Positions 3,001 to 52,435 of a stretch of 64,000 nt of DNA are shown here, one piece after another. The first letter of the stretch is position 1; every line of letters begins with the position of its first letter. Below the pieces are notes generated by a model that searched no databases, was not told where the DNA came from, and was given only the letters and a program-made list of their open reading frames with translations. The stretch is from Raillietiella orientalis. Lineage: Eukaryota. The position numbers and the translations under genes were made by a program. The DNA is taken from the NCBI GenBank assembly GCA_036172245.1, contig JAYWIR010000032.1, positions 1,178,001 through 1,242,000 of the forward strand, given 5' to 3'.

Positions 3001-5064
3001 TTCACGGAGGTCCAACCGTTCACGTCCCAGGCATTCTGATAAGGGCAAGGCGTAGGTGGGCCTTGGGGAAACATGCAGGCGCCGTGGGCGAGCTGGGTAT
3101 CCACGCGCGCGCGAGCCACCGGTAGGAACCGAATTCCTGTTGGTGCACACGGCGACCCGTCAAGTGAGGACGGGCTTGCGACCTGCACGCATCGCAGATG
3201 AAAAGCGCCCCACGGAGGAGGCTGAAAGATGCACCTCGGACGAAAACATGCGGAGGGGGGACGGGGACGGCACAAGGACCGGGACCAGCAGTTGGAACAC
3301 ACTCGGAGCAGATGCTCTCGCGACGGAGATCCGTGCTCGAAAAGATCAGCCTCCGATTCGAGGACCACAAGTGGCAGATGCCATCGCAGTGATGAAAGGA
3401 AGCTTCAACGAATCGCAAGTCACAGGATGCCTCCGTGGCAATTTTTGGCGGGATGGGTAAAACGTACTCTGGCAACAAAAGCAATGCAACCCGACTTTCT
3501 CTATCATTGCTGGGTAGCACTGAGCTGTCAACGGTTTGGTCTTTGGTGAACCTTGCGAGATCCAGGTCTCTTTTTTCTTTTCTTTTTTTCTATTTTGTTT
3601 TATTTTTTTTTCAACAGCCGAAATCTCACCGGAGAAGGGAGGGGGGGAGCTAGGAAGAGTGCTGTGCATCCGAACATTCAGCAGAGGAACCTCAGACTGA
3701 GGGAAAAAAACACCACACGAAAACAGAGCGTTTCCCCAAAGGATGCTGATACTTTTCACGTCTGATTTATTCCGGTCTGTATTGTGTTACAGCCTGAAAG
3801 CAAATCCCAGGCATCCTGCAGCCTTCCCGAGGATGCGTTGGCCTCGCCAAGGCAAGAAGCTCGCACTCCCAGCCGTACGCGAGCGACAACCCTTCCTGGG
3901 CGTCGGCGGTTGAAACGATGCGAGCCGCTCGAGTGAGCGCGGGATGACGGATCCGCGCGCCTTCCCGGCAGAAACCGCACTCTGAAAGTGAAATCTGCTG
4001 AATCCCAAACATGAGAATCAGAAGACGGACGGTGCGCTTCCGGCATCCCGACGCAAACCTTACGGAGACGAAAAGTGATTACAGAGAAACGGCGAGTCGT
4101 GCAGGACGAGATTTACAACTGCAAGGCTCCAAGGAGCAGCAACTGCCTGGATACGCGCGCAAGTGCAACGCAGGAAGCTTGAAATCTGCAACCGGCCCTC
4201 CGAATGCAAGATCTGGCGTGCGGGGTGGAAAGATCTGCACCGAAAGGAAAGCGCGTCCCGCCTTTTGAAACTTGAGAAGTGAAAACGACTCGCAGGAAAA
4301 AAGTCGGGCCAATTTCGAAAAACGCGAACTTCCGAATGCCGTTTACGAATTCACCCTTTCTTTCTTCTCTTTTCTTTTCTTTTTTTTTTTCTGGAAAAAA
4401 AAAAAAAAAAAGACTCCCACTTCTTGCTTGGGGCAGACAAAGAAGACAAGGGAGAACTTTAAGGGACGTGGGACTTCCAGCGCCCGTCTTCCGCAACCGC
4501 GAATCGTGTACCAAACTGACTTGCGTTCGGTACACGTTTGCGTTGGGGAGCGGACACTTCCAGCAACTCGGTACGCTGGCGTCTTATGGATGAGCCCACG
4601 GCCAGGATCCACGATTTTTGGATAAAATTCTGCATCGAACAAGAAAGTCCGCGAATAACCGAATCTCGCTCGAACTCTCAAGTGAGAAAAAATCCAAAGG
4701 GAAAAAGCACGCGACCTTGAAAGTGGTGGGTGGAAAAGTGAAACACATATGTGAAACACGTACACCAGGAGAATTCGGGAGCGTGCGAGAGCACCTCAAA
4801 AGCAGGTTACTCGTCCAATCAGCAGACACTCTTTATTTCTTCCACGAAATTCTAACCCTTTTCCCGCCGAATGACATTCTGTGTCACTACGCTTATCGGT
4901 TCACGGGATGAAATAAATGGGGAGATCCCAGCAACTTGCTATGCACGAGCCCTCGTCACTTTACATCGACGCTATCATTTTGTGACAAGAGTTGGGTGCG
5001 TAACCGTCACGGCTGCGATAACGGAACTTTTAACTTACAAACGAAAAACAGAAAAGCAAAAAAA

Positions 5065-8000
5065 ATGCAATTTACACGAATGTTCATTTGTTGCATTGTA
5101 ACCGATTGCATTCTCCTCTGTGCGGCTTGGCCGTTCCATAACGCAAGACTGCGCAAAGGTTTACTTGCTGCTCCAGAAAAAGATGCAGGAAATTCATCCC
5201 AGTTTGGTGAAGAATGGTTTCAGCAGAAGTTGGACCATTTCAATCACTCTTCCACTCAAACTTGGAATCAGGTGGGTGCAAAATCTTCCTCTTGATCCAA
5301 CATGTAGGTGCTCCAGAAATTTTTCCGCAATGACGAGTACTTTAGAGAAGGAGGACCAATATTCCTCATGATTGGGGGTGAAGGACCTGCAAACAGTGTA
5401 TGGATGTCCAATGGCGAATGGATCGTACTGGCCAAACGCTTTGGTGCCATGTGCTTCCTTTTAGAGCACAGATACTACGGAGACAGCCATCCTGTTCAGT
5501 GAGTGTCCAGTGCTTGGGTTTCAGTTCATGATTGGGAGGAAAAACAACAACGCCTTACCTAGAAATCTCAGCACCAAAAATTTGAAATTTCTGAGCAGTC
5601 GGCAAGCATTAGAAGATCTGGCAAACTTTGCCAAGAAAATGAAATCTGAGTTGGACTTGAATAACAGCAAAGTCATTGTGTTTGGTGGCTCCTATTCTGG
5701 AGCACTAGCAGCATGGGCTCGCTCCTTATATCCAGATGTTATACATGGAGCAGTTGCCAGTAGTGCTCCTGTTGTGGCAACTACAAATTTCCAACGTAAA
5801 TCCCAACCACTTTGACCAGCATCATTAACTGGCTGTTGTTTCTAGAATACCTGGATGTAGTAGCTAAATCTTTAGGGCCTAGCTGCATATCACCTATTGC
5901 AAATGGATTAACCCAGATAAAAAGCTTAATGAAAGAACCTGGTGGAGATCAATGGATTTCGGACAACTTTAAGTAAACATGAACATAACCTTGAACATGC
6001 ACAAATTCCAAACAGGCTTTGTCTTCCTCTTAACCATACCAACACAATGGATGTTGCCAATTTCTTTCAAAGTGTGGCTGATCGTTTCATGGACGTAGTT
6101 CAATATAACAAGGATAACAGGGGATTTGAAGGGGTCAAAGGAACCAACCTGACCATTGATAAGATATGTGCTGTGCTAATTGATGAATACAAAAGAACAG
6201 ATGCCTTGCATGCACTGATAGCAGCTAATGACATATACATGGCTGCCAAGGAGGAAAAGTGCATGGAGCATCAGTACAAGCAGATGATAGATGAACTCTC
6301 TCAGATTTCCTGGAAAGACTCTGAAGGAGGTAAAAAAAAAAAAAAAAGGGAATGTACAAACTAATGAAAACTGAGATTAGCTAGGCAGTGGCTCTACCAA
6401 AGCTGTACAGAATTTGGCTTCTTTCAATCATCGGATTCTCCTAGGCAACCATTCCATAACCTTTTTCCAATTTCAACTGTGGTGTGCCAATGTGCTGATG
6501 TTTTTGGCAAGCGTTTCACATACAGCTCTGTGGAGCTTGCAGTGTATGAGACAAACAAGTATTATGGAAAACGACATTTTAAAGTGGACCGAATATTTTT
6601 CATTAATGGGATGATAGACCCTTGGCATGTTCTTAGTGTGTTACATGATTCTACAACAGTTCACAGCCGTCTTCTTAAAGGTAAGTTCCAACTGTATAAA
6701 AGGAAGAAAAAAATATTTTGTAACGGAAGGGCGATAAATTCAATAAACAAACAGAAAAATTTACAAAATAAAAGAAAACGTAATTTACTCATATGTTAAT
6801 TCAAGACCACTTTTCGGATTAACAAAATGTTGTGAGGGATGGGATACCGGGTAAACATTCATGGATGTCAAGCACCGCTTCCATGTATTTGCACGAGTGC
6901 TAGTAACATCAGCACATTGTTACATAATAAACATTAGGTGATACAACAGTAGAAAGGACCGTTTTCTAATACACAATACGTAAATCTCCTCTATTATGTG
7001 GGTGAATCGTGGAACACAAGAAATACATAAAGTGACAGTTTGTGCTGATAAACGAAATATCTTGAGGCGGATGGCTTTAATTCGTATCTGAATTTCACTA
7101 CTGTATACAATCATGATATCCTAAGTTAAACTAACCTTATCATGGTGAGAATTCCAAATCGAAATGGGGTAGCGATTCAAGTGAAAATGCGAAAGTAGCT
7201 TCTCTATAAAAACAGTATGCATAAAATAAGTAGTGAACAATTAGATGATATAAAACAGTGCACGCAACGACCATTCAAGCTGTTAGCATGTTGTTTATTA
7301 GCAGAATGAAGGTGCAGGAAAAAAAAAAATGAGACGAAAAACTGCATAGCGCAATCAGGGTTCCACCATCTTGGCGATCGTAATTATTGAGTTCGGATGA
7401 TACCGAACAGAGTACCAAATACCGAGTTGAAGCAAACAGCTTTAGTTTTCACCCGGACTCTCCAAGTCGTAAAAGGAAAAACTTTAGTGCAATTAAAACA
7501 TGGAAACGTTTCCGAACTAGATCTTCTCTTTGTAACGCTATTTACAAATAATAAGCTACTGAACATGCTTTAAAAACAAAGATGGCTACTGCCTTAAGAT
7601 GAAGAAGATGGTTCTGCTTTATGTTAACTTAAGACTTAACTTGCACTAAAGTTTGTAGGTCTCCACTCTTCAGATCGGATCACTTAACGTTGACATTTTA
7701 TTGAAACGGAACGGATCGGTTTGGTGTGCAGTCATTCAGCTATGTGAGTCGCTTAAGTAAAGTTAACTTCGTCTAGCTAAGTGAGCAATACATGAATGTC
7801 GTTAACTGCATGGAAATGTATCTGGAATGCACAATGAGGATGTTTCACTTGAACCAAGAATGTGCCACCAAGAATTGCTTCCAGTCCACTCTTTCATAAG
7901 GACGTGTCAACATTGTTGTTTTCAGAAGAGTACATTTTCTCATCCGATTGCTTATAATAGTCTGATTCTGTGTGGTGAGGATAAAATTGAAGAAACTTGA

Positions 8001-11000
8001 TGACCCAACACTGAATTTCTAGAAGATTAGTGAGAGAAAGAAAGGAAAGAAAACTCGCAAAGTTAGTTCTGAAAGCCAAAATCAATAGCAGGCTGGACTT
8101 TCTGTTGCTTTTTTTTGCTGTTGTTGTTGTTTAGTTTAGGTGTTGATCATCCTTTTCATCATGATTAATATATTATACAAAACTATAGAAAATAGGCGGT
8201 TGAGAAAATAGGCGTAAAAGCTGCATGGATGTTTTTTTTTTTCTCTCGGTTTTTTTTGAATATAATGATAAAATTGAAACTTTTATCCTGGAGGGTCATA
8301 AGAAACATAATAGACAAAAGTAATCAAATGATCTCGATTTATCAGTGGAATGTAAACAACGGATCTCTGAAGTGTAAATGGACAAATCATATAAAGTAAG
8401 GAGGTGCATTTTTGGTTCTGAAGGCCAGTTTAAAAATAATAACAGTGCGCTGTTAAAGGAAGTCTTTTTTAAAATTTAGAGCTGCTTGACATTTATTTTG
8501 CTAAAATTACGAGCCATCGTAAAACGGGGAATCCGAATGAAAAACGATGGCCACCTTAGCGACGCGCAATTTGCATTTAAGGTAATTGGAATCCCGGTCT
8601 AATTGATAAATTGAAATCGGATTAACAAGGAATAGGAAATGTCTCGTTTTGATGTTACAGACATATGAAGCGAATGCATAGCTTTTGGACTCATGCAAGT
8701 GAAATAAAGAAAGAAAAAGGTATTGCTGAGGTCTGCCACATAGATACATTCTAGATAACTGATCAGTTTAACATAGAATAATCTCAAAGGACAGCTTAAT
8801 TTCTGGTTCTCCACCCCGAAGAAGTATACATGCAAAGGAATCGAATATGGAATGATTCGTAAATTTGTGTTTCAAATGTGCCATAATTTAAAAGCACCGA
8901 TGCAGCAAAATTGTGAAACAGTTTGCAATTCATTGTAAGGATCAATGAATCGAGAAGATGCACGCCAGAGGAAAGTAAGCCGCATCTTGGAGTGGCAGTT
9001 GGGATAATTTTTCGTAAGGTCATCTTCCGTCTTCCAACAGTCTTAAAATCCAAGAATAAAACCTGTAAAATTAAATAGATTCCTTAGCGATTGCAAACAA
9101 CGTTGCACCCGAAAATTCTCTGTTCGGACAAGAAAAGCTTGCCTTCGAGGTGGAAGACACCGCTGGAAGATGAACTGATTTGTTTTAAGAAGACTCACAG
9201 ACGACGGCAGCTCTGTTTTCATTAATGGGACGAATGATTTCAGATGGGAGGCAGCGGTATGACTAATTCCAAACAAAGCATTAGATTGTCCGTCTTCCTC
9301 CTTCCCTCATGCTACTTTTGCTCTTAAAAAAGTGATGCACTGCATCTTCATACTTCAACAGGAAAATGGTAGGCATGGAAGCAACTGACCCCCACTATTC
9401 CTGGGAATATTACTATGTGAGAATGAGTTGCGTTGACGTGTTGCTAACAGCCAATCGAGGAGTGGCGCAAGTTGAGCTTCACAAGTTACAGTGAGCGAAG
9501 TATCGTCTGAAAATTCTTTTGATTCCAAACTCCTTTGATTTGGAAGTTTGGTTTCGAGTCAGAAGCTGGATTCTGGAGTCTTTCTGAAATCGCCCACAAC
9601 ATGTTGATTGTCCTTGTTCGAGGGGGGGAAACAGGAGCGCGAAGCTTTCGAACGGAAGAGCCAAGCTTGCTGAAGACGGAAAGAAGGCAAGCAGCAGCGT
9701 TTTCGAGGCGCTTGACCTCAGACTCCGCAAACGCATCCTGAGCTTCGAGGCATCCGAATCCCGCTGCTTCTTGGCAGCAGCACTCTGAGAGCTCTGCCCT
9801 CGAAGCAACAGCGCAGACGACGCCAGGGCGACGTATAGAGACGAGCCGAAGGGAAGCGGCCACCGGCAGCGGAAGCCCTCTTGGGTTCGAAACCGCTCTT
9901 GCAGAGGTCGCGATAGGTGTTGTCGTGGTACGCCGGGATGTTGCGCGCCCGGTGGAACCGGAGCAGTGCGAGATCGCGGCGCCAAGCGAGGAGCGGGCGT
10001 CGCCGCCGTCTGACGACGGGCTGCCTCGAGCGGCAACGAGTCCGCCCGCCTTGCCGCGAGCCGAAGAACCAGGTCGTGCCGGCGGAAGCATCTGAACGGA
10101 AGTGGAGAAACACCCGGGATCCACTTCCGGAAGTCCGCAAGAGCGAAGAGAACGAGGGACGGCGCAGGAGGAAGATCCCTCCCGACGACCACCCGGCGGA
10201 CGCTGACTGCGGGGAGGAATCCCGGGCTGCTGCCAGCGCTCCTTTCTCCCACGGGAAGAGAAAGGAAGAGGAGGAGGGGGGGAGACGGGAATCTTCGCCA
10301 GAGTGCGCTCCCTCCGCGGCAAGATCCGCCCGCGGCGGCAAACCGCGCGAAGAGTCCTGGTTCCCAGGAAGTATCGATCCCGAACGAGGTCCTATGGACC
10401 TCCTGCGACGGCGACCGCGGGGTTCCCGTCGACCGACATCGCGTGGTTGCCATCTTCCCGCCTTTGTCGTCCGCGCCGGCAGCTCACTCGCCGACCTCGC
10501 AGCCGCGGGGCAGAAGATTCTCCTCAGACGGGATCCGAGGGGAAAGGACGCCCGCAGGGAACCTGCACCTCCCATCTAGGAGAGGACACACTGGACACTG
10601 GCCAATAATCACGGGGAGAAGGAACGGCTGCTAAGGAGAGCTCGACGACGTGGGCCGAAAAAGCGGTGGTGGGGAAGGGCGGCGCTCATCTCATCCTCCC
10701 GGTCTTCCAGGCAACGCTTCGCTTAAGTAATCCCGGACCGGGGCAGGCATCCGCTGCCACCTTCCGAGACTCACAGCGAGGGGGCGCCGCCGAGTTCAGG
10801 TGGCGTCGAGGAGATGCGAGCCCAGGTTCCCCCCCCCAACCCTCCGCACAGAAGTTCCGCCTCGATCCCGTCCCTCCCTCCGGGCGGGAGGAAAGCGATG
10901 TGCGAATCCCTGCGCGGGCACGGAGGCCGAGAGAGCACCAGGAGCACGGCGAGGAGGAGGATGGAGGGAGAACTGCGCGCGGTGAGACGGGGAGAGGGGA

Positions 11001-12988: not shown

Positions 12989-13028
12989 ATGCCCAGGAGG
13001 AAGCAGACGCAGCCGCGTCCACTCAAAC
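12989..13028 (+). CDS. ZNF423: Distal first coding exon of the ZNF423-like gene, [13 protein letters not shown] (NuRD-interaction-type motif)
   Basis: ATG at 12989, 13 codons plus 1 nt, then donor gtaagg at 13029. Matches the N-terminal MSRRKQxxP motif of FOG, SALL, BCL11, ZNF521 and ZNF423. Phase 1 fits the acceptors at 17152 and 40528. Confidence 0.8.
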
Positions 13029-16000: not shown

Positions 16001-17675
16001 CGCGCAGCAGCGCAAGGACGACCTCAGGGCAGGGAGATCCGAGGCCACTTCCCGCCGGGGTGGGTTGTCTCCCCTCCTTGCTAAGCGGATGCGCGCGGGA
16101 GGGACGGCCTCGAGACGAAGGGGAGACGGGACGCAGGCAGCACAGGCGCCGCGCGCGCGCTGGCGGCGAGCCAAGCGCCGACCCGCCGTCATGGAAACGA
16201 CGCCCGCGCGTCACGCTGCTCCTGCTGAGCGGGCCCGCACGCGCGCGCCTCGCCAGGGAATCGCAACTTGCCCACATTTCGAACGGAGTTCCGTTCCTCC
16301 TCCCTCCTCTATTACTCTTTTAGTCCTCCTCCTCCATTCTTCCCTCTTCTCTTCCCTTCCTCCTTTTCCCCTTTTCTTCTCCTCCTCTTCAACCTCTTCT
16401 CCTTTCGTCCTCCTCTAGAGCGAAGGGGATCTCGAGTCGGGGAGAGGGAGAGGCCCTTCCATGGCTCTTCCTGCTCCGCTCTCGCAGAGAAGAAGTCATG
16501 AAAGAGGGAAGCAGTTAGAGGGAGCTGAGAGGTCTCAGAGGGCAAAGGCGGCGGTCCAGATGGCTCTGATCCTTCCCCTGCCTTGCTCCTGCTCCTCATC
16601 CAGCATCGTATCCTCCTTCCCCTCCGCGTCCCGGTGCATTGCTGGTCCTCCCGCGGGGAACATCATCCAGGCGGTCCACGGAGAACGGAAGGCCCGCGAG
16701 CGCGCCCGCTGCCCCTTCGCGATGCTCGCGGACGAGGCGTGGCTCACGCCCGCTCGGATCCCCTCGCGGGATCGCGGCGGCGGCGGCCGCTATTGAGGCT
16801 CCTCGTGGAGAAGGTCTGCGCGGATTCGAACTGCCCGGAAGCTGCGGTCCAGCAACAGCCCGCCGTTGCGGGTGTGGCACGGTCCGTTCCCTTTGCCTCG
16901 AACGAACCGGAAGAGAGAGAGGAAAAAAAAAAGTGGAAGGAAGGAAAAGAAAGAGAGCCGGGGAGACAGGAGCAGGCGGAAGAGGGGGAGTGGCGGCAGC
17001 AGCAGCAGCAGCAGCAGCAGTGGCTAAAGACAAAGCAAAAGAACGAAAGAAAAGAGACGTGCGCCTTCCTTTGCCGGCAGCAGCCTCTCTGCCGGACCAG
17101 GGCAGCTTCCTTCTCCTCCGAAACCCCCGTAAATAACCGCGCAATTTTCAGGTAAGATGATCTGCGATGATAGCCACAGCGGAGATGACATGACCGAAAT
17201 CTTCAAGAGCCAGACGTCGGATTCCTTCGGCAACTCCGACTATTACGAAGGTACTTTGAGAAAATGAAGTTTTCCAGAGAGAGAGAGAGAGAAAGAGCGA
17301 GAGACAAAAAAAAAAAAAAAAAAAGAAAGAAAGAAAAGAGCGAGAACGGTCCTCCTTTCTTTCCTCCCCACTCTCCTCCGCTCACCCTGCGTCCTCCTTT
17401 TTGTTGCTGCGTGCGGCTCTTTCGATTACCGCGCGGCGGCGGCGGCGGCGGCGCGCTTGAGGTGCCACACGCGGCGGCAGCGGCGGCGGAGGGAAGCGCG
17501 GCGAGCGACGCTTCCTCCTCCGCTACGCAATAAATGCCAAAGTTGCGCAAAAGCGTATGTCATTACGCGCGGGTCTCCCCTTAGCAGATTCCGTCCTCAA
17601 CGCGCACGGGTCGCTTCTTTCTTCAGCATTGCCCTCTGCTTGTTTTTTTTTTTTCATTCTTCCTGTATGTGTGTG

Positions 17676-17709
<34 letters not shown>

Positions 17710-20700
17710 CATACAGTGAAGAAATATATATATATTTGGTCACCCTCCCTCGTTTCCTCCCAACCTGATGCGACTGTCGTCACGTGATCCCGGCCCCCGC
17801 TCGCGATTGGCCTCTCGCGCGCGGGCCGAGCCCTATTACCCCCCTCGTAAAGCCGTGCAATTTCCGAGAGATTACCGCCGCCCATGCGCGTCGTCGGCCT
17901 TTCCTTGCCCCCCCACCCACACACACACATACCCTCTTTCCCTGTCCCGCAGGGGAAAGGGGAGCGCTGGAACCCTTTGCGAGCGCTGACAGCGAGGATC
18001 CTCGCGTCCGCGATAGGGGAGGAGGGTTCCATGCCACTTGTCGAGAGGGTGCGAAGCGGATGCCCTTGCCCCCACGCCCCCTTTCCCCCCCCCCCCCCCG
18101 GAACGGAGCGCACGCGCGCACGCGCGGCTGTCGGCGCTCGCGAGCGAAGGCAACCCCCACCCTGAGCTTCACCCCTGGCAACCGGTCGAGGCCAGCCAGC
18201 CGATTTCGCGTCCGCGTGGCTTAGGGTCGAGACTGCCCTCGGACCGGCGTCCCCATTTCCGGACAGGACAGGCGAGCTCTATCGGGCGCGGAACAAATCC
18301 AGGAGTCGTGGCCTCTCGGAAATTCGGGCAGGTCTCAGTGCACAGCCCTCCTCCTCCTCCTCCTCCTCATCGTCGTTACCCTCGTCCTCTCCCGTTCCTC
18401 CTCCTCCTCCTCCTCCTCGCACCTCGGCGACGGGACCGGACGCAACTGCGTCCACACTTGGTCCAGGTACCCTCCCGACGCGCACGCAAACCGGCGCAAG
18501 CCCGCTCGCCGCCTCCCCCGCTCGGGGAGAGGGAGGACCGCGCGCGTCTCCTGAGCGACGCGGAGCATCTCCTTCGGCGCGAGCCTCGGCCAGGGCAGCA
18601 GACCCGGTGCTCGTAGGAGGCCTCGAGGACCAGGCAGGCCGGGTCCTCCTCGTTTCCAAATGGTGATTCATGGCAATTTAAAGTCCTATTAGCTGTTGCC
18701 AGGGAAACCGAATTCTCCAGACTCCTGGAACTAGTCCCTCGCCTTCGGATATGATTAATACACTCTCTTGAGGATCCTTTCTTCCTTATATCTTCATCCA
18801 GGATACGTGTGCCTAATAAAAATACTCAAAATCAAGAGGAAGCTGTAAGCATCGGAGAGAACGGAGAGTGTAAATGCTAACGGATGAAGACAGCAGGAGC
18901 CCTAGGGGCTAAATGCAAACTTGCATGTGTCCCCGGGGAAATAAATTTCCTTTGAAACTGCACGTGCTGATCTTTCTGGAAAGTCCAATTTCATTCCATC
19001 TTCCGGATGGAATTTCCAGACATTAATAGCAAGAAATACTTTTGCATGGCGGGAATTCACTTTTCCGATGTCCGAGGAGCGAAGAGCTGCTGCTGCAATC
19101 TCCAGGCTCCCTTCCCGCGTGCGCGATCTTGACTTTTACGTCGCTCTTGGCGATTAAGGGCAGGGCATCCCGCGTGCTCCTCGTTCTCCTTCCTCTCCGC
19201 AGCAGCCGCCGACGCGCGAATTTTTTTTTTTTCGTTCCTTTTTCTGTTTTCGTTCCTGGGGGAGGGCGGAGGAGGGAGGGGGGAAGGGAACGGAAGGGCG
19301 AGTCGTGCGAGCGGACCCACCTCGAGGAGCAGTCCTGGGTGAGGGCGAGCGAGAGCACTTGCGCATCCCTGCCCGTTTCCTCGCCCGACCTCGCACGTAC
19401 GTCTGTCCCGTCTCTGGAGAGGCAGACCGCGACCTTTCGATCTCGCGTCCACTTCCTCCTCCTGCCCCATGTCCAGGGGCGATGTGGGACTCTGAGAAGG
19501 GGCGGTCTTCCCGCCTCTTCGGGGTCTAGTAGGTTTCCGGTTCGTTGCTGGATCTTTATCAAGGAAGTGCCGCACGGTGCTTGGAGGTGCGGATGCGGCC
19601 TGGCGCCTGGCATCTCCGTGAGATGCTTCCTGGAGCGGCGCTGGAACCGGGAGCGAACTTCCCGACACCCAGCGAACGGCGGCGGAACGGACGAGTGGGC
19701 TTATCCCTCTGAAACGGCTCCCGGTACGCAGCGGGCATCGCATCCCGGCATCCGAAACGGGAACAACCTGATCCACTCACGGACGATCCGCAGGGGTACG
19801 CACGCCGACCTCGGAGTCCCCGAGAGGATCGCTTCCAGCACTCGCGCCTCCCCGACGCTCCTCCATCTGGCAGACGATGCGCGCACCGCTGGCTGGTCCT
19901 CCCAGCTTCTTCCCGTTCGCCCCTGCCGACGCTGCTGGCACCTCGAGCGACGGAAGGAGTAACCGAAGCAACCGACTGCTACCTCTTTTTAACTGGCCTC
20001 TCGAAAAATCGCCTCTTGCAGGTGCTTCCCATCCGAAAGGCCTCGCCGCTACCTTCCGCTCACATCCCGATCCGCCCGCTCAGCAACCTGACCAGAGGTT
20101 GACCGTAAAGCAGTGGTGTTTTGAAAGTGTTCTCTCTCTCTCTCTTTTTTTTTTTTTTTTATGGCACCATACCGCGGGAGGCACTTCCTTCGTGTTCCTT
20201 TGGTCCTCCCGGGCGTTTGTTTTTGAAGTGGTCATCATCTTTATTGTTGCCGTTCCTTCCTTCGAACCCTCCGTTCGCTTGGGCGTTTTTTTTTTTTTTT
20301 ATAATCGGGAAGCGTCCCGATCTCCCTAATCAACTCATCCCATGCCAAACCAATAAATTGGATTCGGACAAGGAGACGCCGTGGCCTCCTACGCCTCACC
20401 TACCTCACGAAAAATTAAAAAAAAAAAATAAAAAAAAGTTTATCCGCCTCGTTTTGGTCCGCTCCAAGAAGAAACTGCTCTTCTCGTCTCTTCTGCATAG
20501 ACAGGCCGTTCCCACATCCTCCCTTGCATGGCTGCTGCTGCTCCCGGAGAGCGCTCGGACCTGCGTTCCCCTCGCCCGGGGGCCATCGAGATGCGCTTGA
20601 GACAAGGCGAAACGCGCTCCCCGCGATGCTTCCCGCCGCCACGAAACCACCGCAACCACCACGCTTTGCTTCCTTTTGTGTGGGTGCATTTTTTTCTTCT

Positions 20701-35700: not shown

Positions 35701-36701
35701 TCCGGGAGCGCGGCACAAACGCGCCGGCTCCCCTTGTCGGCGCGGCTTCCACAGGACGCCAGCGCTAGCGAAGAGTCCCTCCCGCCACGCCGCGCCGACC
35801 GGAGCCCCCCGTTCCAGCGCGAGGACGCCCGTTTATGGTCGCCGATTCCCGGGAGTGGCATAAAACGCGCGCAGCGTTTTGGGAGCGGGCGAAAGGCTTC
35901 TCTCTCTCTCTCTCTCTCTCTCCCCGCTCCCCCATTCCCTTCCGGCGCGCTCCCTGCCGCCTCCGAGCGCTTCCTGAGCGTCTTCGGAAAGCGAATAGGT
36001 CGAGGTCGAGCTGCCAGGGCGCGCGGCGGCGGCACTGCCAGTCATCCCACCAGCATCCCGCTAACCGGTTCGGGAAGATCCTGTCTTGGCGGGGTCGGAC
36101 GAGTGCCACTTTCTTCTTCTTCTTCCGTCGTGCTCCTCTTGCTCTCCCCTCCCTACCGAGGGTGAGCGAACCGCAGGCTTTGCCCCACGCACTTCTTCCT
36201 TCCACTCTCCTCCCGCTTCCACAACAATGCGGCGAACGGTTTCCGCAACCATGGTAACGTTTATTGCCGTCGCCGCCATCTCTCCAAACAGATAACATCG
36301 GTGCCCATCTTGATCGACCCCTTCCACCGAGGAGGACACAGCATCAGAATGACCATAAATTCGCCATATGCGCTGGCGCTCGTGTGGTCGCCCGACATTT
36401 GCAACATGCGAGCGGAATGCGCCCATCTTTCCAGATGAAGCGCGCGCGGGCGAAAAGCCACGCCGTGCGCGCGTACGGCGGACCAGCGAGCGTCTCCACG
36501 GAATCCGCTGTTATTGATCACACTTTCAAGCTATTAATAGGCAAATCTCGGATTGCTCACAGCATAGAGAAATCCGTTCCGACCCTGCTCACTTCCAGCT
36601 TTGCCCACGGGATACCCGTTCCCGGCGCTCCCCGAAACGCTGCACGTTCAGGGGAAACCATGGGGGAATATCCAGAAGGATTGCGAACGGTTCGTCTTTT
36701 T

Positions 36702-36745
<44 letters not shown>

Positions 36746-39700
36746 TATTTCTCCTCTTTTTTTTTTTTTTTCCGCACCGGCAGTTTTGATGAATCTACAC
36801 GAATCTGATGCTTGTACCATATTCGAAATGAGGGCATTTTTATCCCCCCCCCCTTTTTTTTTTATTCTCTCTTTCTCTGGAGGAAAGGAGGGGGAAGGGG
36901 GAGGGGTGCGCGCGGTCGTGGTCCTCCTAATCCTACCCTGCGTAAGGTGGGGCGAGTCCTCACGAAATCCATCGTTACTGATGGCGCTCGTTGTTCCTTG
37001 AGCAAACCTGCCAGAAAATGGAAAACAGGAGGGGGAGAGGAGGGTGGGGGGGAAGTACTTTTCCTCTTTAGAAAGGTTTTTGTGTCTGCGCGCGCGCCTC
37101 CTCGGGATGTGTGTGTGCGTGTGTGCGTGTGTGTTTTTTTTTACACCTCCTGGAAACAATCTAGATATGGATAGAAATTGGTTTGTTTTCCCCCGCCTCC
37201 TCCTCCTCCACGAGCTTCCTCTCTCTTTCCTTTTTTCCCCCAATGCCTGGACCCCCGTGATGAATCGCCGTCACCCACCCAACGCGCGTGGAGCGCGAGA
37301 GTTCCGAACGGGGGTAACTTTCTGCCTTTCGTACTCCGCCGTTGACGATGACAGCAGCCTGCGTACATCTTCATCGTGCATCCTCCGCACAAAAGAGAGG
37401 GTCCATGCAGCGCGCCGGGTGTGGCGTGCACCGGAGCCTCGGCCTGCTGTTTCTCACGTGATCGCCGCTGGAAATTCGGAGGCATCTGATCGAGCAAGGA
37501 GAGCGGTTTCCCGAAGACGGGAAAAATAGGCTGGAGTTATTTATTTATTCCTGTTTGTTTTGCTCGAGGCACGATCGCTGGTTGCCACTGGAATGGATTC
37601 CCCGGGCGCGCGGTGGATACTCCGAGGAGAGCGCTCCTTCCCGGGGGATCGGTCGAAACCCGCACCGTCGGGGAGAGGAGGAGGGGGAGGAGGAGGACGG
37701 GCGCTCTGCATCAGGAACGCCGCCCGGCGCAGCCTTGCTCGCTCCTCCGGGATTTTCCTGCCAGGGCTTCCCGGGAGCGGCGCGTCTGGGAAAGAAAGCC
37801 CGCGCCGCTTCCTCGACGACGACGCTACCGTGGAAACGCTCGCCTCGAAGACGAGGCGGACGCTTTGCGGTGGTAGCGGGTACACCTCCCTCTTTTGCGG
37901 GAACACGCGGGAAAGGAGCACCCCCTGCGGACGAGAGTGAGCGCGCGCGGGAGCCGGAGCAACGTTCGCAGCGAGACCTTCCCAGAAGTGGCCGGGCGGA
38001 TGGCAAGGGCGGGCGTGCGGCGGTGTGCGCGAAGAGCACCCCAGGCGCGAGGAGGGAGCCACGGCACGGTCCCCACATGGACCGGGAGGACTCACCCAAG
38101 CAACGCGGGCGCTCGCCCCTTCTCCGACCGGTCTCAGCCACTGCCGTTTCTTCCTCTGCTCTCCACCGAGAGAGGACGCCGGCGACTCCTACTGGAGACC
38201 TCCGAGCGCATCCGACACCTGCCGGCACCTCGCGTGCGGGGCCGGGTGCCGCCCGCATCCCGGATAGTCGACTGCTTGCTGGCTGCTGCCGCAGGAGCAG
38301 CAGCAGCGTTTGCAGCGGGCTGGTCTCTAGGGTGGCGCGCGCTCTGCTTCCTCCAGCCCGGAAGGTCATCGGCCGCAGGCGAAGGCGGCCAGGTGGCTGC
38401 CTGGACGCTGTGACGGCGGCGGCGGCGGCGGCGGCGACGACGCAGGAGGAGGAGGAGGAGGAGGCGCGTTCCCGGAGGAAAGCCGAAGAGTCGGCCGGCA
38501 GAAGGATCGTCTTCCGCCCCGCCAGAAGAGGAGGATAGACGCCACCTCTAGCTGCCTCCCGCTTTCTTCCCTCCCCGGTCCGAACGGAGCCGCAAACCGA
38601 GAGCGCGCCGGGCGGCACCTCGTCAGGGGAAAGAACTCCCCGTTAGGCGCGCCAGCGAGCTGCAGTCAGGCGACCTTTCGACCCCTGACATGACACGGTC
38701 CGGTGCCAGGTGCCCGCGGCGCCTCGTCGTCCGTCAGAGGAAGAGGAGCAGGAAGGAGAAGGCAGGGAAGGGCAGCACAGCCATCTCCAGCGCTACTCGG
38801 ATGCGACCTTTCCGCTCTTCGCCTCCTCGGCTTCCCCCTTCTCCTCGGCTTCCCACCCTTCTCCCTTCCCCCTCCCACCCTTCTTCTTCATGTCTCCTCC
38901 TTGCCTCCTCCCCATCCTCCCTTTCTCCTTACGCGGGGGGTCAGGGTGGGGGCGAAGGAGGAGGAGAAAGCGGGAAAGAAAGGAAAAGAGCGAGCCGGGG
39001 AGGGACGGAGGAGGGGGAGAAAGGGACGCGCGGTGGCGGAGGGCGGCAGTAAATCCGTTCCGGTTACAGGAACCGTGACCTCTGACATCTCCTTCAGCAG
39101 CCATAAATCCCTCTTCTTTGCAAGCCGGGCCTCTCCCCGCAGCCTCCTCCCGGGACGCACAATGGCCGCCGCGCGAGGCGCAATTTGTCTTCCCCGCTGG
39201 TCGGGGAGCGCGCATGCCACCCAGGTCTTATCTGATCGGAGGAGGGGGAGGAGAGAAGCGCGCGCGAGGGGGGGGGGAGGAGGCGGGAGGGGTCGCCCAG
39301 CGCGACGTGCGCCTGTCACCTCAGGCGTCGCCGCTGCCTCCCTGCCTGTCCCCCTGCTCCCCCGCCCCCGCTGGTGCGTCGCGCGCGTGTATGCGCGCGC
39401 GAGGGAGCAAGGGCGGGGAAAGGGCTGCTGCCGGGCAGGGGGGCCTTCCTCCCTTCCCTCCTCCTCGCTCCTCTTCCCGCACCCCTTTTTTTTGTCGCCG
39501 TGGTGCAAGCACTCGTAAAGTAGGGTTAATCGGATTAGGGCCGTCGCCCCGCTCCGCCCCTGCCGAGGCGCTCCGAGGGGAGGGGCTGCTGCCGCCGCAC
39601 TGCACAGGCCCCCCGCCGGAGCACGAGCGCCTTCCTCCTGCCGGAAGGGCGGGCCTGGGAGGGAGGATGGGAAAGGTGCGCGCAGGTAAGAGCGGGCGTG

Positions 39701-42700
39701 CCCTATACTTCGCCAGAGGGGCCAGCGAAGGGGGTCGGCGGGGCGCCACCGGCAGCAGCTCCGAGACGCGACGCCCATCCTGCCCGCATCCCCCTCTCCC
39801 GCACGCTCGGGGTGACTCTTGAGAGGAAAAAGGGGGGGCGGGTCGAAGGGCCCCCACCGCCACCCTCGTATGCCGTAGCGGCGGGAAGCGGTTCGCGCTG
39901 CCGCGGGGCCGGACGTTGGCGGCGGCGGCGGCTGGAGGACCCGCATTGGCCGAAACCACCTACGGCAGGCCTTGCCTCCTGGAGGCAGCCGCGCGAGGAA
40001 GGCCCAATCAGCGCGCGGTGCGGGTCCACCCAGAGACCTCCGCTGAGCCGCCGCTTCGAGGAGGTGAGCCCCCGCCAGGCGCGCGCGTCTCCCCCCTTTC
40101 CAGTAGGCTCCGCTCGCTCGTCGTGTGCGCGCGCGCTCCGTGTGCCGTCCTCCTTCCCTCGCTCGCTCGCGTGCGGTGCGTGCGCGTGCACGCTGCGCGC
40201 CGGCCTCCTCCTCCACCTCCTCTTCGGCCGTGCCCCGGGGACATGCTCTTCAAGGGGAACAGCTCCAAGCTCGAGAAAGTCATCGTCAAGATACAGGCGG
40301 ACCGCGGGGCGGAGGGTGAGTGGGCGGACGAACGGGCGCGGGACCCTCGGACAGCCCAGACGGAAGAAGGAGACGGGCTGCTGCACCTCCTTTTCCTCCC
40401 TCCGCCGCCACCGCCGTCGCCACCTTCTCCCTTTGGCGCCGGCGGCGGCTTTGCCGGCACCCTTTCCTCCTCCTCCTCTGCCTGCCTTTCTTGAGCCTGG
40501 GACTACAGTCGTGCTTCCTTCCCGCAGATTCCTACGGGACGGATCCATCCCCATGGAAGTCGGACGCCCTGGAGGATAACTCGCTGTCCCCGACGTCATG
40601 TAACACGACCAACAGCTCGTCCGAGGTGGACGCGGAGACCTCGGCGGGTGCCAACGGCGCAGAGGCTGAGGGCGCCTCCTACGCGTGCCAGTTCTGCGAC
40701 AAGGCGTACCCGAAGCTGAGCTTCCTGAAGAAGCACGAGCAGGTAGGCCCGCCCTTCCTCCATGCTGCCTGACCACCTCCACCCTGCCCACCCCCCGCAG
40801 ACCCACGGAGACCAGATGCCCTTCCGGTGCGACTTCTGCCAGAGGCTCTTCAAGCACAAGCGCAGCCGCGACCGGCACATCAAGCTGCACACCGGCGACA
40901 AGAAGTACCGCTGCCCCCACTGCGAGGCCGCCTTCTCACGCAGGTCAGAGGAGTGGAGAGCGCCCGCGAAGGGGGGCTGGATGGGGGGTGGGGACATGGG
41001 TCCTTCGCTCCCCAGTCGCCTCGCGCCGGTTGCTCGGAACTTGCTCTACCGTCCGATTCCCCGGACGGAGGCAAGGCCGAGCACCGCTTTCCCTCCACCG
41101 TGCTCCAGTCGTCCTCCCTCTCTCTCTCTCCCCTTCCCTCCCTCCCTCTTTCCTCTTTCTCTATCCATGGTCACCTCAGCATGCGTCGAGGTCTCCCTGC
41201 TCTCGTGCTGTGGGGAAGCAGGCTAGGCCCCCTTAGGGCGTTTCGGTCTTTTGGCTACCGGCGGACTGCGCCAGCCTCTCCTCGGTCACGTGCGCCTCCC
41301 CCCGACAGCGATAGGGGGTCAGAATGGAAGTCAGGGAGGTCGCCGTTTTTCACTTTTTGCCTCCCCCGCCGCACGCCACCGCCTCGCGATCCTCCTCGCC
41401 TTCTTCCCGCCCCTTCCGGGCCCCGGGGCGGAGCGCATCGGGGCCGGAAGCGGAAGTTCACTCTTTCCCTCTCCCCGTCCAGCGACCACCTGAAGATTCA
41501 CCTGAAGACGCACGACACCCAGAAGCCCTTCCAGTGCAAGGTGTGCAACCGGGGCTACAACACCGCGGCGGCGCTCACCTCCCACGTGCAGAACCACAAG
41601 AAGGAACACGCCAATGGTGGCGGCGGCGGCGGTGGCACCGGCGGCGCCGGAGGCTACCGGTGCCTGGAGTGCCTTGCGGTTTTCAAGAGTCCGGAGGAAC
41701 TGCAGGTAAGGGAAGGTCGAGAAGGCCGACTCCGCGCGCCGCCTCCAGCGCACTCCTCTTCGTCACCTCCTACCCACCCCTCTCCAGGTCCACGGAGTGT
41801 CACATCTGGAGGCTGTCGTCAAGAAAGGCGCCACCCCCGCGGCCACGGCAGACGGGTCTCCCCCAGCGCTACCGCAGCAACAGCAGCAGACGGGGCGAGG
41901 AACGCCGGGCGGCGGCGCCAAGGACCCTTCCGCCGACACCGAGACGGCCACGACGTGCTTCTGCTGCCTCAAGGAATTCTCCTCCCTGCGCGACCTCCGG
42001 GAGCACGTGGACACCTTCCACAGTGAGTGGATCGGGGCGCCCCGCGAGGACCCACGTCTCACGACGAACCCTCCCTTCACGCACGCCCGCGCAGAGGGTG
42101 CCCTACGCCACCACCAGGACGGCAAGGCGCTCCCGTTCGCGGCCGCGGACGCCTTCTTCGGCCGCCGCGCCGCGGGGCACCTGCCCGCGCAGTTCCTGTG
42201 CGACCTCTGCGGAGCAGCCTTCGCGTCGGTTCACGCCATGCAGAAGCACGCGCTGAGCGCCCACGGCTACGCCGGGGGCGCGGCGGCAGCGGCAGCGGCA
42301 GCGGACGCCTACGGGAAGCTCAAGGACCTGGTCATGTGCTCCCACTGCTCCCTCGTCCTTCCCAACGTCTCCGTCCTGGCCGACCACCTGCGGTTCTCCC
42401 ATGCCCCCTCTGTCCCTTTCCCCGCCCCCTTTTCGCCTGCTGCGGCTGCCGCCGCGGCTGCCGCGGCAGCGGCCGCCGCCTCCTTCCTGCACAGGAACGT
42501 CCCGCTGGATCACGTGCTGCTTCCCGGCAGCGACAGCCTGCCGACGGACCTGCGCAAGCGGGAGCGGTGCCCGGAAGCGCGCGACGAACCCTGCGGAAGG
42601 AAGTTCCGCAAGGCGTCCTCCGGGAGCGCCTTCACGGAGGTCAAGGCGTTGCCGGCGACCGATGACGCCTTCCTGTGCAGCCAGTGCAGTGCCTCCTTCG

Positions 42701-44529
42701 CGGACTTCGAATCCTTCAGAGCCCACCTGAAGGCGCACCTGGAACGCGGAGGCGGCGGCGGTGGAGCTCCCTTCGCCTGCGCCGAATGCCACGCGGAGTT
42801 CCCGTCGGAGGAACTGCTGGAAGCGCACGCCGTGGCACACTTCCTGTCTGCGGACCGGGCGTACGACTGCGAGACGTGCGGCAAGGTCTTCGGCAAGCCG
42901 GACGAGCTGCAGAAGCACCTCATGGACATCCACGCGCACCATCTGTACCAGTGCTCCTTCTGCAAGGAGGTGTTCGACTCCAAGGTGTCCATCCAGGTGC
43001 ACTTCGCGGTGAGGCACAGCAAGGAGTGCCGCGTTCTTCACTGCGCCCGCTGCCGTGCCACCTTCCTCTCCGAGCCGGAGTTCCAGCTGCATGTGCGCGC
43101 GGCTCACCTGCGTAGGAGCCCTCCTCCCTACCGCTGCCCCTTCTGCCCGCAGGGGTGCGCCTCCGAGGCCGACCTCCGCGAACACCTGGCCGCCCACCAG
43201 AAGCAGTTTCCGTGTACCGTCTGTGGAGAGGCCTTCCCCGTGCGCTTCCTGCTGGAGAGGCACATGGACACCTGCCACGACGGCAGCGGCGAGGGGACTG
43301 ACGTCAGCCCCGCCACTGGAGACGCCGCCTCCGGAGGAGGCCGCCGGCACCACCACCACCACCACCACCACCACCACCAGCAGCAGCAGCAGCAGCCGGG
43401 AGCCGGGACCAGTAGCACCAGGAACAAGTGCAACATCTGCGACGAGGTGTTCCCGGCGGCGTCCGTCCTGGCGGAGCACAAACTCGTCCACTGCAAGGTC
43501 ACCGCGGGCACTCTGTGCGTCATCTGCCGTGGTGACCTGGGCTCCGAGGAAGACTTCTTCGTGCACCTCCGCAGGCACCACGCGGAGTCCCTGCCCGCCC
43601 CCTGCGTCATCTGCCGGCAGACCCTGCTGTCCGACGTGGAGGCGCACCTGCACGCCCGCTTCCACGTTCGCCTGGGGGGCGGCTCGCCGCCCCTGCAGTG
43701 CCACAAGTGCCGCCGGCGCCGCGACGGCTCCCAGCTCATCCTCAACGGGCTGCGCAACGGCGCGCAGACCTATCTGTGCAGGGGCTGCTTCCGGGAGGAG
43801 AACGGGGGAGGGGGAGGCGCGGCCCTCGACTTCTCGGCCCCGCGGGAGGGTGCTCCGCCTCCGCCGGCACAACCTCCAGAGAGCGATCCCGGCCGATCCC
43901 GCAGGCCTTCGTCCCCTCCTCCTTCCTCCTCCGCACCCCTTCCCTCCACCTCCCCATCGTCCTCCTCCTTCTCCTCCTCCTCATCCCCCTCCTCTCCTCT
44001 TCCTCCTCCGTCTCCGCCACCGCCCGAAAGAGGACTGGAGGCTGCGACGGGAGAGCGCGGTCGGCGCCACGCCTGCCCGCAGCCCGGTACCCAGCGGGAT
44101 CACCGCGCCCAGCGACCGCGCGGTGACGCCTTCGCTTGCACCGAGTGCGGAGCGCGCTTCGGCCCCTGCAAGGACCAGGACGCCCAAGGACTTTCCCTCC
44201 ATGGTGGCGAAGAGAGGCCCCGCGAGTGCCATTCCTGCCTGAAGCGTCTTGTCGGGAAAGAGGGCCGCAAGCCTCCTGCCCACCCGAAGCCCAAGCCTTT
44301 CGCCTGCCCTCAGTGCGGCAGGCGTTTCGCCAGGAAGAGCCAGGCGAAGGAGCACCTGAGGACTCAGCAGTGTCTGGAACGCCCTCGGGCGTCGGTGGAA
44401 CCCTCCCGAGGGCAGGTGCCGGAGGACGATGCGATGGAGAGGAGGAAGAGTCCCGGATCCCCGCTGCCAGAGGCGTTGCTGAGGCCCCGCCCCGACGGCG
44501 TGGCCTTCCGGGCGGTCAGCGAAGGGTGA
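12989..44529 (+). CDS. ZNF423: ZNF423/ZNF521 (Oaz)-like multi-C2H2 zinc-finger transcription factor, long isoform (1120 aa, or 1153 aa with the optional exon)
   Basis: Exons 12989-13028, [17152-17250 optional], 40528-40742, 40801-40943, 41483-41705, 41788-44529. Family-typical fingers: [77 protein letters not shown] count 18 intact C2H2 fingers plus a terminal C2HC finger. Linkage of the distal exon is inferred from its motif and phase. Confidence 0.85.
13670..13850 (+). repeat. Tandem pair of a purine-rich unit, period 94 nt
   Basis: GAAGAGGGATGAGGGATGCTGGAGGTAAGGAGCGG(G/A)TGATGCAGGGAG starts at 13681 and at 13775. Confidence 0.85.
14775..14930 (-). repeat. Inverted, diverged copies of the 13681 unit
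   Basis: The reverse complement of 14821-14868 reads GGAAGAGGGATAATGGATGCCGGAGTGAAGGAGCGAGTGATGCAGGGA, with partial units on either side. Confidence 0.75.
17152..17250 (+). CDS. Candidate 99-nt symmetric (phase 1-1) cassette or recursive-splice exon of the ZNF423-like gene
   Basis: Acceptor ttttcag|, donor GAAG|gtact. Open in frame: (R)[32 protein letters not shown]. High-complexity sequence amid low-complexity DNA. Confidence 0.55.
17664..17735. repeat. (TG)n/(TA)n microsatellite
   Basis: Read directly from the sequence. Confidence 0.9.
22620..23260 (+). repeat. CT-rich degenerate array
   Basis: CCAACTCCATTCCTCC recurs at 22750, 23052 and 23150 within a near-pure pyrimidine tract. Confidence 0.75.
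30680..34285 (+). repeat. Three clusters (30680-31320, 32500-32930, 33992-34285) of a degenerate GA-rich repeat family
   Basis: GGAATGGTGCAGGAGCAAGAAGAAAGCAGG-like cores at 30913, 31148, 32553, 32631, 32833, 34029, 34143. GGATGCAAG(C/T)AG cores at about 30753, 32807, 34004, 34123. Confidence 0.75.
39945..40008. promoter_or_regulatory. Paired CCAAT boxes, candidate proximal promoter of the ZNF423-like gene
   Basis: ATTGG at 39945-39949 and CCAAT at 40004-40008, about 240-300 nt upstream of ATG 40243. Confidence 0.35.
40243..40315 (+). CDS. ZNF423: Proximal alternative first coding exon of the ZNF423-like gene ([24 protein letters not shown]), 1131-aa isoform
   Basis: ATG at 40243, phase-1 donor G|gtgagt at 40316, 212-nt intron to 40528. 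Resembles, from memory, the N-terminus of arthropod ZNF423 homologues; not verified by search. Confidence 0.7.
43348..43395 (+). repeat. Coding (CAC)10(CAG)6, a poly-His/poly-Gln tract in the ZNF423-like protein
   Basis: Read directly; in frame between two zinc fingers. Confidence 0.9.
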
Positions 44530-47065: not shown

Positions 47066-47105
<40 letters not shown>

Positions 47106-48040
47106 GAAACACCCTGCAATTTTCTCCCTTACTGCAATTACAGATAGTTGACGCCAAAGAGAGCTCACTTTGCTCGCATTCCAGCTTGAGCATGGTTCTT
47201 CATCAGAAACGCTATTAGGCGGATAAACCCCATTGTAAGTCTTCGAGACCGTTACGTGCCAAAGGAAACGAATGCAGGCTCAGCACTGCACTCCCTATAA
47301 CTCGGTCCTATTCCCCATCTAGAAAAATTGAATCTCTGGTGATTCGCTGCCAATTGCGTTTGATGCAAATTCCCCTCCCCAAGAAAGCAGGTGCTATGGA
47401 AACACTGCTGCAACAAGAAAATCTCAGGATAGCGGAAGGAGACTGCAGGAAAGCAAGGAAGGAAGGGGAGGGGGGGGGGGGGAACAAGTTTATGTGGTTG
47501 AGAGATGAGCGTGATATACCACATCCTTTTCGATTTCTGATCGCTCCGCTCCGAGTGATCCCGAAGAACGCTAACAGGAAGAACTCAGCCAGTTGGGTTC
47601 GATCCTGGAGCCATGCCGATTTCACTGTCGTTGCTCTCCCGGTAGCAAGTGTGCATGTGTGTGCGTGTGGCTTGCATACATTAGGGAAATCCAGGAGGAG
47701 CAGCAGCCCCCCTTCTAAAAAATTCCGAGATTACCGAGGTTGTCGTTCCAGAGAAACCGGGGAGGAGGGGGGGGGGAGAAGTGCAAGACTCGAGCCTCAG
47801 ATGGATATTTTGATTTTTTTTTTTTTCCTGTTAATTTCTTCCTGCGAGGCATCCTGGATACGTATCAGTCCGCCTCTCGATTTCCTAAAAGATCGTGCTC
47901 TTTCCTCGTGTGGGGCTTTTTTTTTTCTTCCTCCGGCGACAGCGTCTTCCCATTTCCGAGGCTGCGGAGGCACCCGAGCACCATGACGTAACTGTGGGTT
48001 CCTCTGGGAGAACGTTCTTGAAAATCAACCCGTGGTTTGA

Positions 48041-52367: not shown

Positions 52368-52396
52368 CTTCTAGCGCCTTGATTTGTTTGTTTATT
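52353..52396. terminator. Facing poly(A) signals of ABHD12 (+) and AMPD (-)
   Basis: AATAAA on + at 52353-52358, inside the ABHD12 CDS. TTTATT at 52391-52396 reads AATAAA on the minus strand. Confidence 0.55.
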
Positions 52397-52435
52397 TACT
52401 TTTGCTGGCCCATAGGTAACAAGACACCAGGGCCC

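Follow-up and report, generated by a model that had tools for sequence, protein, structure and literature searches.

Can one short element in a very long intron serve both as an optional coding exon and as a recursive splice site? The question is raised by a stretch of genomic DNA of 64,000 nucleotides (nt) (contig JAYWIR010000032.1, positions 1,178,001 to 1,242,000; hereafter the window), in which a gene of the ZNF423/ZNF521/OAZ family carries an intron of 27,499 nt between exon 1 and the common exon E3. Within this intron, at 17152-17250 of the window, lies a 99-nt element that begins with the donor-like letters GTAAGA directly behind an acceptor-like ATTTTCAG. A first-pass annotation of the same DNA had described this site, and its description was right throughout: ATTTTCAG is followed by GTAAGA, a GT stands 99 nt further on, and the frame is open from exon 1 to E3. 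In the reading that we favour, with a probability of about 0.45, the 99 nt are an optional coding exon that is spliced to exon 1 and constitute a putative recursive-splicing exon (RS-exon) of the kind represented by microexons mI and mII of Ubx.

The identity of the host gene was established by protein comparison. When the large exon was used as the query, 125 proteins were found at E <= 0.001 (best 9e-139), and the named matches are ZNF423 or ZNF521, with the highest identity (37-44%) in chelicerates, crustaceans and insects and the vertebrates next. The finger region and the start of E3 also resemble arthropod proteins most closely, and by this likeness the source organism is taken to be an arthropod-like invertebrate. 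The host protein consists of an N-terminal RRKQ motif of the NuRD type and a multi-C2H2 body homologous to the family; exon 1 encodes the N-terminal motif, which is of the NuRD/FOG type. The earlier assignment to ZNF423 is borne out by the protein search, the RRKQ motif and the multi-C2H2 body alike.

The favoured reading predicts the following course of events. Transcripts that begin at exon 1 would have the candidate joined at 17152, which would place 33 acidic, serine-rich residues behind the NuRD-type motif. The exon starts with GTAAGA, and this junction would re-create a 5' splice site nearly identical to that of exon 1; it is because of this rebuilding that the 99 nt qualify, by their sequence, as a putative RS-exon. 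In the second step, use of the regenerated donor would remove the exon and complete the excision of the 27.5-kb intron in two rounds, and use of the weak donor at 17251 would retain the exon. Both products would be in frame. An acceptor at 17152 would split off 4,123 nt of the intron and leave a remainder of 23,376 or 23,277 nt. The components of this reading differ in strength. The 99 nt are probably a real coding exon. We infer both the use of 17152 as an acceptor, where the odds that the 99 nt are joined to exon 1 are close to even, and the use of the regenerated donor together with the balance of outcomes, where real use of that donor is doubtful.

The 99 nucleotides as coding sequence

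The guanine-cytosine (GC) fractions of the candidate exon at the three codon positions are.38/.34/.75, a shape that is also found in the gene's confirmed exons. The corresponding skew of 0.391 is reached by 19 of the 26,709 intronic windows of 96 nt (top 0.07%), and these fall into four clusters. Three of the clusters are CT-rich low-complexity sequence, and the fourth, at 40225-40240, is a real exon, the alternative first exon 1c. Exon 1c is in phase with E3 and lies 212 nt upstream of it. Its peptide agrees with the N-terminus of a Plutella protein (P0029) at 15 of 21 residues (E 1e-8), and N-termini of this type occur in many moth homologues of ZNF423, with a looser likeness in Culex. Exon 1c is a useful positive control for the candidate: the sole other non-repetitive place with the coding signal is a proven exon.

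A scan of the exon 1-E3 intron for all phase-keeping open AG..GT pairs that enclose 45-400 nt gave a similar picture. On the combination of codon-position GC skew, donor score and pyrimidine content, just one of the 3,726 pairs on the forward strand equals the candidate, and that pair is the candidate itself; in the reverse complement, which served as the null, none of 3,665 pairs is equally good. A further frame-compatible candidate from the scan, 36167-36253, was discarded on its translation. The candidate exon is open, has phase 1 at both ends and keeps the frame whether the 99 nt are present or absent. A coordinate-joining script built four models: exon 1 followed by the candidate, exon 1 without it, the candidate starting at the ATG at 17157, and the third 5' exon at 40243. 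All of them are open to the stop at 44527-44529. The earlier statement that both outcomes keep the frame is sustained by the models with and without the 99 nt, which are open to 44529, and the view that the open, in-frame 99 nt look coding is supported by the skew in the top 0.07%, by the unique result of the exon scan and by the open joined frames.

At the level of codons, the choices for Ile, Phe, Lys and Ser within the 99 nt agree with the bias of the gene. The codon that would be formed at the junction, CGT, is rare and accounts for 6 of the gene's 72 Arg codons, a small hint that the GT is perhaps retained for a non-coding reason. A repeat check found the sequence of the candidate exon itself not to be repeated. 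It forms a complex island between purine-rich (GA/A) low-complexity tracts at 16912-17056 and 17277-17340, and a (CAG)9 run lies upstream of it at about 16995-17021. An in-frame alternative acceptor, AG/AT at 17185 (17183-17185, forward strand), would shorten the exon to 66 nt and raise its codon-position GC skew to 0.48.

Splice sites and donor competition

The splice motif by itself is not beyond chance. The sequence YYYYCAGGTRAG occurs once in the window, where 0.25 occurrences are expected, and at least once in 25 of 100 shuffles. The pattern TTNYAGGTRAG is found three times on the two strands together, against an expectation of 0.26, and three were reached in none of 100 shuffles; AGGTAAG, which is also the ordinary donor consensus, is present 12 times, with 3.8 expected. 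The other two instances of TTNYAG/GTRAG, at 5554-5564 and 49449-49459, both on the reverse strand, are probably ordinary donors of minus-strand genes and lie in AT-richer blocks. What is beyond chance is the placement of the motif at the in-frame edge of a coding-like open reading frame.

At 17145-17157, in TTTTCAG/GTAAGA, an acceptor and a donor are juxtaposed, and 17152 is the only AG/GT in the exon 1-E3 intron that combines TT at -6/-5 with GTRAG. This TT, present at 17152, is found at 14 of the 189 forward-strand AG/GT sites, at 50 of 1,866 intronic AGs and at none of the four confirmed acceptors. According to Duff et al. (bioRxiv 10.1101/006163), 196 fly ratchet points out of 197 have TT at -5/-6, host introns measure 11.3-133 kb and recursive segments 2,596-63,580 nt; the 27.5-kb host intron of the candidate and both of its segments lie inside these ranges. 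Downstream of a fly ratchet point lies a short RS-exon, usually with the weaker donor (bioRxiv 10.1101/006163; PMC8605326), and fly ratchet points are also described as having a prominent pyrimidine tract and as strongly conserved (Duff et al., bioRxiv 10.1101/006163; PMC8605326). In its TT, its CAG/GTAAG, the sizes of intron and segments and the presence of a downstream donor, the site agrees with several features of fly ratchet points and putative RS-exons, as the first-pass annotation had supposed.

Donors were scored with a crude position weight matrix (PWM) and compared with 997 intronic GTs (Table 1). The donor that would be regenerated at the exon 1 junction, as proposed earlier, equals exon 1's own donor at eight of nine positions and differs only at +6. 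It should be competent, because any isoform with the NuRD motif relies on the near-identical donor of exon 1. The donor at 17251 is the sole usable one at the downstream edge, since an in-frame stop lies at 17265-17267. Both the regenerated donor and the one at 17251 agree with the consensus at six of nine positions, and on the crude matrix they score 2.51 and 1.08, respectively. In the donor-competition model of Joseph et al. 2021 (PMC8605326), skipping through the regenerated site is favoured unless that site is repressed; according to Blazquez et al. 2018 (PMC6224609), inclusion of an RS-exon requires repression of the regenerated site, for example by the exon junction complex. The 9-mer CAGGTAAGA stands a second time on the forward strand, at 39683-39691, with a pyrimidine fraction of 0.2 and 557 nt upstream of the ATG at 40243; a non-coding leader exon may have its donor there.

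Weighing the explanations

Several observations count against the favoured reading. The pyrimidine fraction before 17152 is 0.5, compared with 0.7, 0.8, 0.9 and 0.9 at the confirmed acceptors, and 40% of intronic AGs also reach 0.5; inspection by eye upstream of 17152 revealed no clean branch site of the consensus yUnAy. The codons for Asp and Glu run counter to the bias of the gene (GAT 4 : GAC 2; GAA 2 : GAG 0). A first exon would be in keeping with the ATG at +6, with a stop that lies in frame 27 nt upstream, and with an ATG-free stretch of 435 nt. A protein search with the 44-residue in-frame stretch returned no candidates, and the 32-residue peptide had no match at E <= 0.001 among 1.84 billion protein representatives. 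When this peptide (P0001) was compared with all 71 N-terminal segments of the family, its best local score was reached in 160 of 500 shuffles. For a look-up in flies we used the gene name Oaz, with CG17390 and FBgn0284250, which we take to be its correct designations. Oaz is absent from the nine supplementary files of PMC6110457, including their table of 539 sites, in data that cover S2 cells only, and just 6% of fly introns longer than 11.3 kb are recursive (bioRxiv 10.1101/006163). In the literature searched, no link between recursive splicing and ZNF423 or Oaz was found.

The results for the peptide have to be set beside those for its neighbours. Conservation of the peptide had been put forward earlier as a check, and nothing significant emerged from the general protein searches or from the shuffle test over all segments. 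When E3 was used as the protein query, 35 word-sharing candidates were found and none at E <= 1; because E3 is also without a match, it seems that the protein collections contain neither this species nor its near relatives. Two metagenome scans, one for an exact 51-mer and one for a degenerate pattern made by back-translation, gave no matches, and a Pfam scan of the 44-residue stretch reached no curated cut-off (EGF_Tenascin, E 0.066, 13.7 bits against 25). The family nevertheless has N-termini of comparable layout. A start of the form M..RRKQ is present in 30 of the 120 family proteins examined, and acidic sequence follows the NuRD-type motif in two moth proteins and one crab protein. The moth acidic stretch ends in DIKSESMDSFES (P0036) directly before the point at which the isoforms converge, which is the position that the candidate holds relative to E3, and the order that we infer for the moth 5' exons (NuRD, acidic, MLFKGNSS, common exon) equals the order in the window. 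With respect to an acidic segment behind the NuRD-type motif, the first-pass annotation finds support, as relatives carry an acidic stretch at this place and have optional exons. Against the 40 residues that precede the point of convergence in six proteins, P0001 attains a local score of 36, which 186 of 5,000 shuffles reach in what was a post hoc test, and the only KS...DSF in any of the window's six frames is that of the candidate exon. A 7/14 match of P0001 to a Culex protein (P0097) was rejected: it lies behind that protein's 1c-like exon, at a non-equivalent place, and is probably compositional. Support for homology of the candidate peptide to the family N-termini is weak and post hoc. 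The recursive-splice interpretation as a whole is partly supported, by the coding signal of the exon, the frames, the motif features and the likeness of the donors, and is set back by the poor acceptor tract and by the lack of significant conservation of the peptide.

The element can also be seen as a first exon, and this reading, through the ATG at 17157, is nearly as likely as the favoured one. In its exclusive form, which we consider somewhat unlikely, a promoter with TAAATAA at 17130-17136 would direct starts at about 17155-17165, translation would begin at the ATG at 17157 or 17190, 17251 would be spliced to 40528, and AG/GTAAGA would be a chance motif at or before the start site. The weak acceptor is consistent with this, as are an A at -3 of the ATG at 17157, the in-frame TAA at 17130, the phase-1 donor and a model that is open to the end. 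The ATG-free stretch of 435 nt upstream is matched or exceeded by 13 of 219 intronic gaps, and the corresponding stretch of the first exon 1c is 373 nt. Multiple first exons are usual in the family: exon 1c lies in the same window, the N-termini differ among ticks, Limulus and moths, human ZNF423 has alpha and beta promoters (PMC3804944), and the moth models P0033 and P0088 begin shortly before a similar motif. On the other side, the strength of CAG/GTAAGA as a donor is matched by only two of the 997 intronic GTs. TTNYAGGTRAG is expected 0.26 times per window on both strands, and its landing in frame within the 26 nt between the stop and the ATG is unlikely. Moreover, a transcript that started upstream of 17152 would carry a near-consensus donor 5 nt before the ATG; splicing would prefer this donor to 17251, and the ATG would be lost. 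A start at about 17155-17165, 25-30 nt behind TAAATAA, escapes the conflict, and translation would then more likely begin at the ATG at 17190. Hybrid use of an exon as first and internal exon has been described (PMC11797052; 10.1101/2021.05.27.446076), and the ATG at +6 might also let the same 99 nt act as a first exon, which would amount to three uses of one sequence.

Two further explanations deny the element a place in the mature mRNA. One holds that there is no exon at all and that a chance open frame of 44 codons lies between low-complexity tracts, with CAG/GTAAGA either arising by chance or marking the 3' end, at 17151, of an unannotated non-coding leader exon, whose donor it would be. 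This is in keeping with a peptide that has no match in two protein searches and no Pfam family at the curated cut-off, with the ordinary donor consensus AG/GTAAG, of which an identical 9-mer stands at 39683-39691 with no pyrimidine tract, and with a poor donor at 17251 that 76 of the 997 intronic GTs equal. We regard it as quite improbable, as the GC skew is in the top 0.07% of intronic windows in a scan that also found the proven exon, the phase is right at both ends, the exon scan singles out the candidate alone and finds none as good in the reverse-complement null, and an mRNA with a leader ending at 17151 would lack an in-frame ATG upstream of exon 4. The other explanation takes the site purely as a zero-length ratchet point like those of flies: 17152 would be a constitutive intermediate, and the 99 nt would form a cryptic RS-exon and never appear in the mRNA. 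It would account for TT at -6/-5, CAG/GTAAG, the size of the intron and a donor at 17251 that scores below the regenerated one on the crude matrix, but the pyrimidine tract is weak, and cryptic RS-exons are generally out of frame and poorly conserved (PMC8605326), whereas the 99 nt are in frame and coding-like; this alternative is highly improbable. Returning to the favoured reading, we conclude that the 99 nt are probably a real alternative exon and a putative RS-exon of a known kind, in which recursion has the status of a candidate only.

Gene model, surroundings and known systems

The analysis improves the 5' model of the ZNF423-like gene, which now includes three alternative coding 5' exons (Table 1). 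The acceptor of E3 at 40528 was rated good on inspection of its sequence.

Table 1. Positions of the features of the ZNF423-like gene in the window. A slash marks a splice boundary; the last two columns give PWM scores of donors and the number of intronic GTs that score as well.
Feature	Position	Strand	Description	PWM score	Intronic GTs as good
Exon 1, coding part	12989-13028	+	ATG at 12989; 13 codons and one base; phase 1		
Exon 1 donor	13029	+	AAC/GTAAGG	3.06	27 of 997
First intron segment	13029-17151	+	4,123 nt, if 17152 is the acceptor		
In-frame TAA upstream of candidate exon	17130-17132	+	Opens the TATA-like heptamer TAAATAA (17130-17136)		
Acceptor-like ATTTTCAG	17144-17151	+	TT at -6/-5; pyrimidine fraction 0.5 (20 nt before NAG)		
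Candidate exon	17152-17250	+	99 nt; Arg of the junction codon, 32 residues (P0001) and first base of the next codon		
Donor-like exon start GTAAGA, in the genome	17152-17157	+	CAG/GTAAGA	7.01	2 of 997 (17152 and 39686)
Putative regenerated donor, same start joined to exon 1			AAC/GTAAGA	2.51	33 of 997
Possible start ATG	17157-17159	+	For first-exon use; second in-frame ATG at 17190		
Downstream donor	17251-17256	+	AAG/GTACTT; weakest donor in the gene model	1.08	76 of 997
Alternative first exon 1c	40243-40315	+	MLFKGNSS..., 24 residues and one base; donor AGG/GTGAGT; conserved		
Common exon E3	40528-40742	+	Acceptor shared by all 5' exons; first conserved C2H2 finger		
Further exons	40801-40943, 41483-41705, 41788-44529	+	Defined in this analysis; stop at 44527-44529		

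The gene stands in a block of distinct composition. GC blocks in the window are sharp, with 60-70% GC over the ZNF423-like gene (10000-46000; about 65% for the block) and 37-50% in the neighbouring 4000-10000 and 46000-54000, and CpG is near expectation at 12-19 kb. The large zinc-finger exon encodes ten His followed by six Gln at about 43.3-43.5 kb on the forward strand, and long Ala and Gly runs are found elsewhere. On the reverse strand, 52607-53329 holds part of an adenosine monophosphate (AMP) deaminase, which matches human AMPD2 chains at E 2.5e-95 with an identity of about 80% as judged by eye; a short unaligned insert in its frame is probably an intron that was read through. A TG/TA microsatellite palindrome at 17650-17740 gave microRNA-family matches far below the gathering scores, which were rejected as spurious; every match of the Rfam scan was below its gathering score and fell on TA/GA low complexity.

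Among known systems, the closest likeness is to the Ubx microexons mI and mII, which are expressed RS-exons (Hatton 1998, as described in PMC8605326). Like them, the candidate is a short coding exon that preserves the frame, sits in a very long intron of a gene for a developmental transcription factor and has a donor at its start, by which it could be skipped through the regenerated site or included through its own donor. Unlike the Ubx exons, which are 51 nt long and conserved at every position, it measures 99 nt and its conservation is not demonstrable; it differs from them also in its weak pyrimidine tract, in being known here from sequence alone and in an ATG at +6 that permits the first-exon reading. 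With the ratchet points of Drosophila (Burnette 2005; bioRxiv 10.1101/006163) it shares the juxtaposed sites, the TT and a host intron above 11.3 kb, as well as segments within 2.6-63.6 kb and the donor of a downstream RS-exon (bioRxiv 10.1101/006163). The fly sites, in contrast, have a prominent tract and cryptic exons that are mostly out of frame, while the tract of the candidate is poor and its exon in frame.

The class of RS-exons is already known, and the candidate is a well-formed, as yet unproven member of it. According to PMC6224609, putative RS-exons account for 3.6% of exons in humans and, in Drosophila, for roughly half of that share; that class comprises annotated, expressed exons above a MaxEntScan threshold, whereas the candidate was judged by the crude PWM and by its likeness to the exon 1 donor. 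PMC8605326 gives fewer than 50 expressed RS-exons as inferred in flies and recursion as validated for Ubx only. It is rather unlikely that the element is a Ubx-like expressed RS-exon outside Drosophila in the full sense, that is, a genuine ratchet point joined to an acidic coding cassette, in which competition between donors would set the N-terminus of the protein. In the ZNF423 family, with its alpha and beta forms (PMC3804944), the NuRD-interacting N-terminus is switched on or off by the choice of 5' exon. If the favoured reading is true, the candidate would be a useful second clear case of an expressed RS-exon, in another transcription factor gene and another lineage, and donor competition would be tied to the presence of a spacer behind a co-repressor docking motif.

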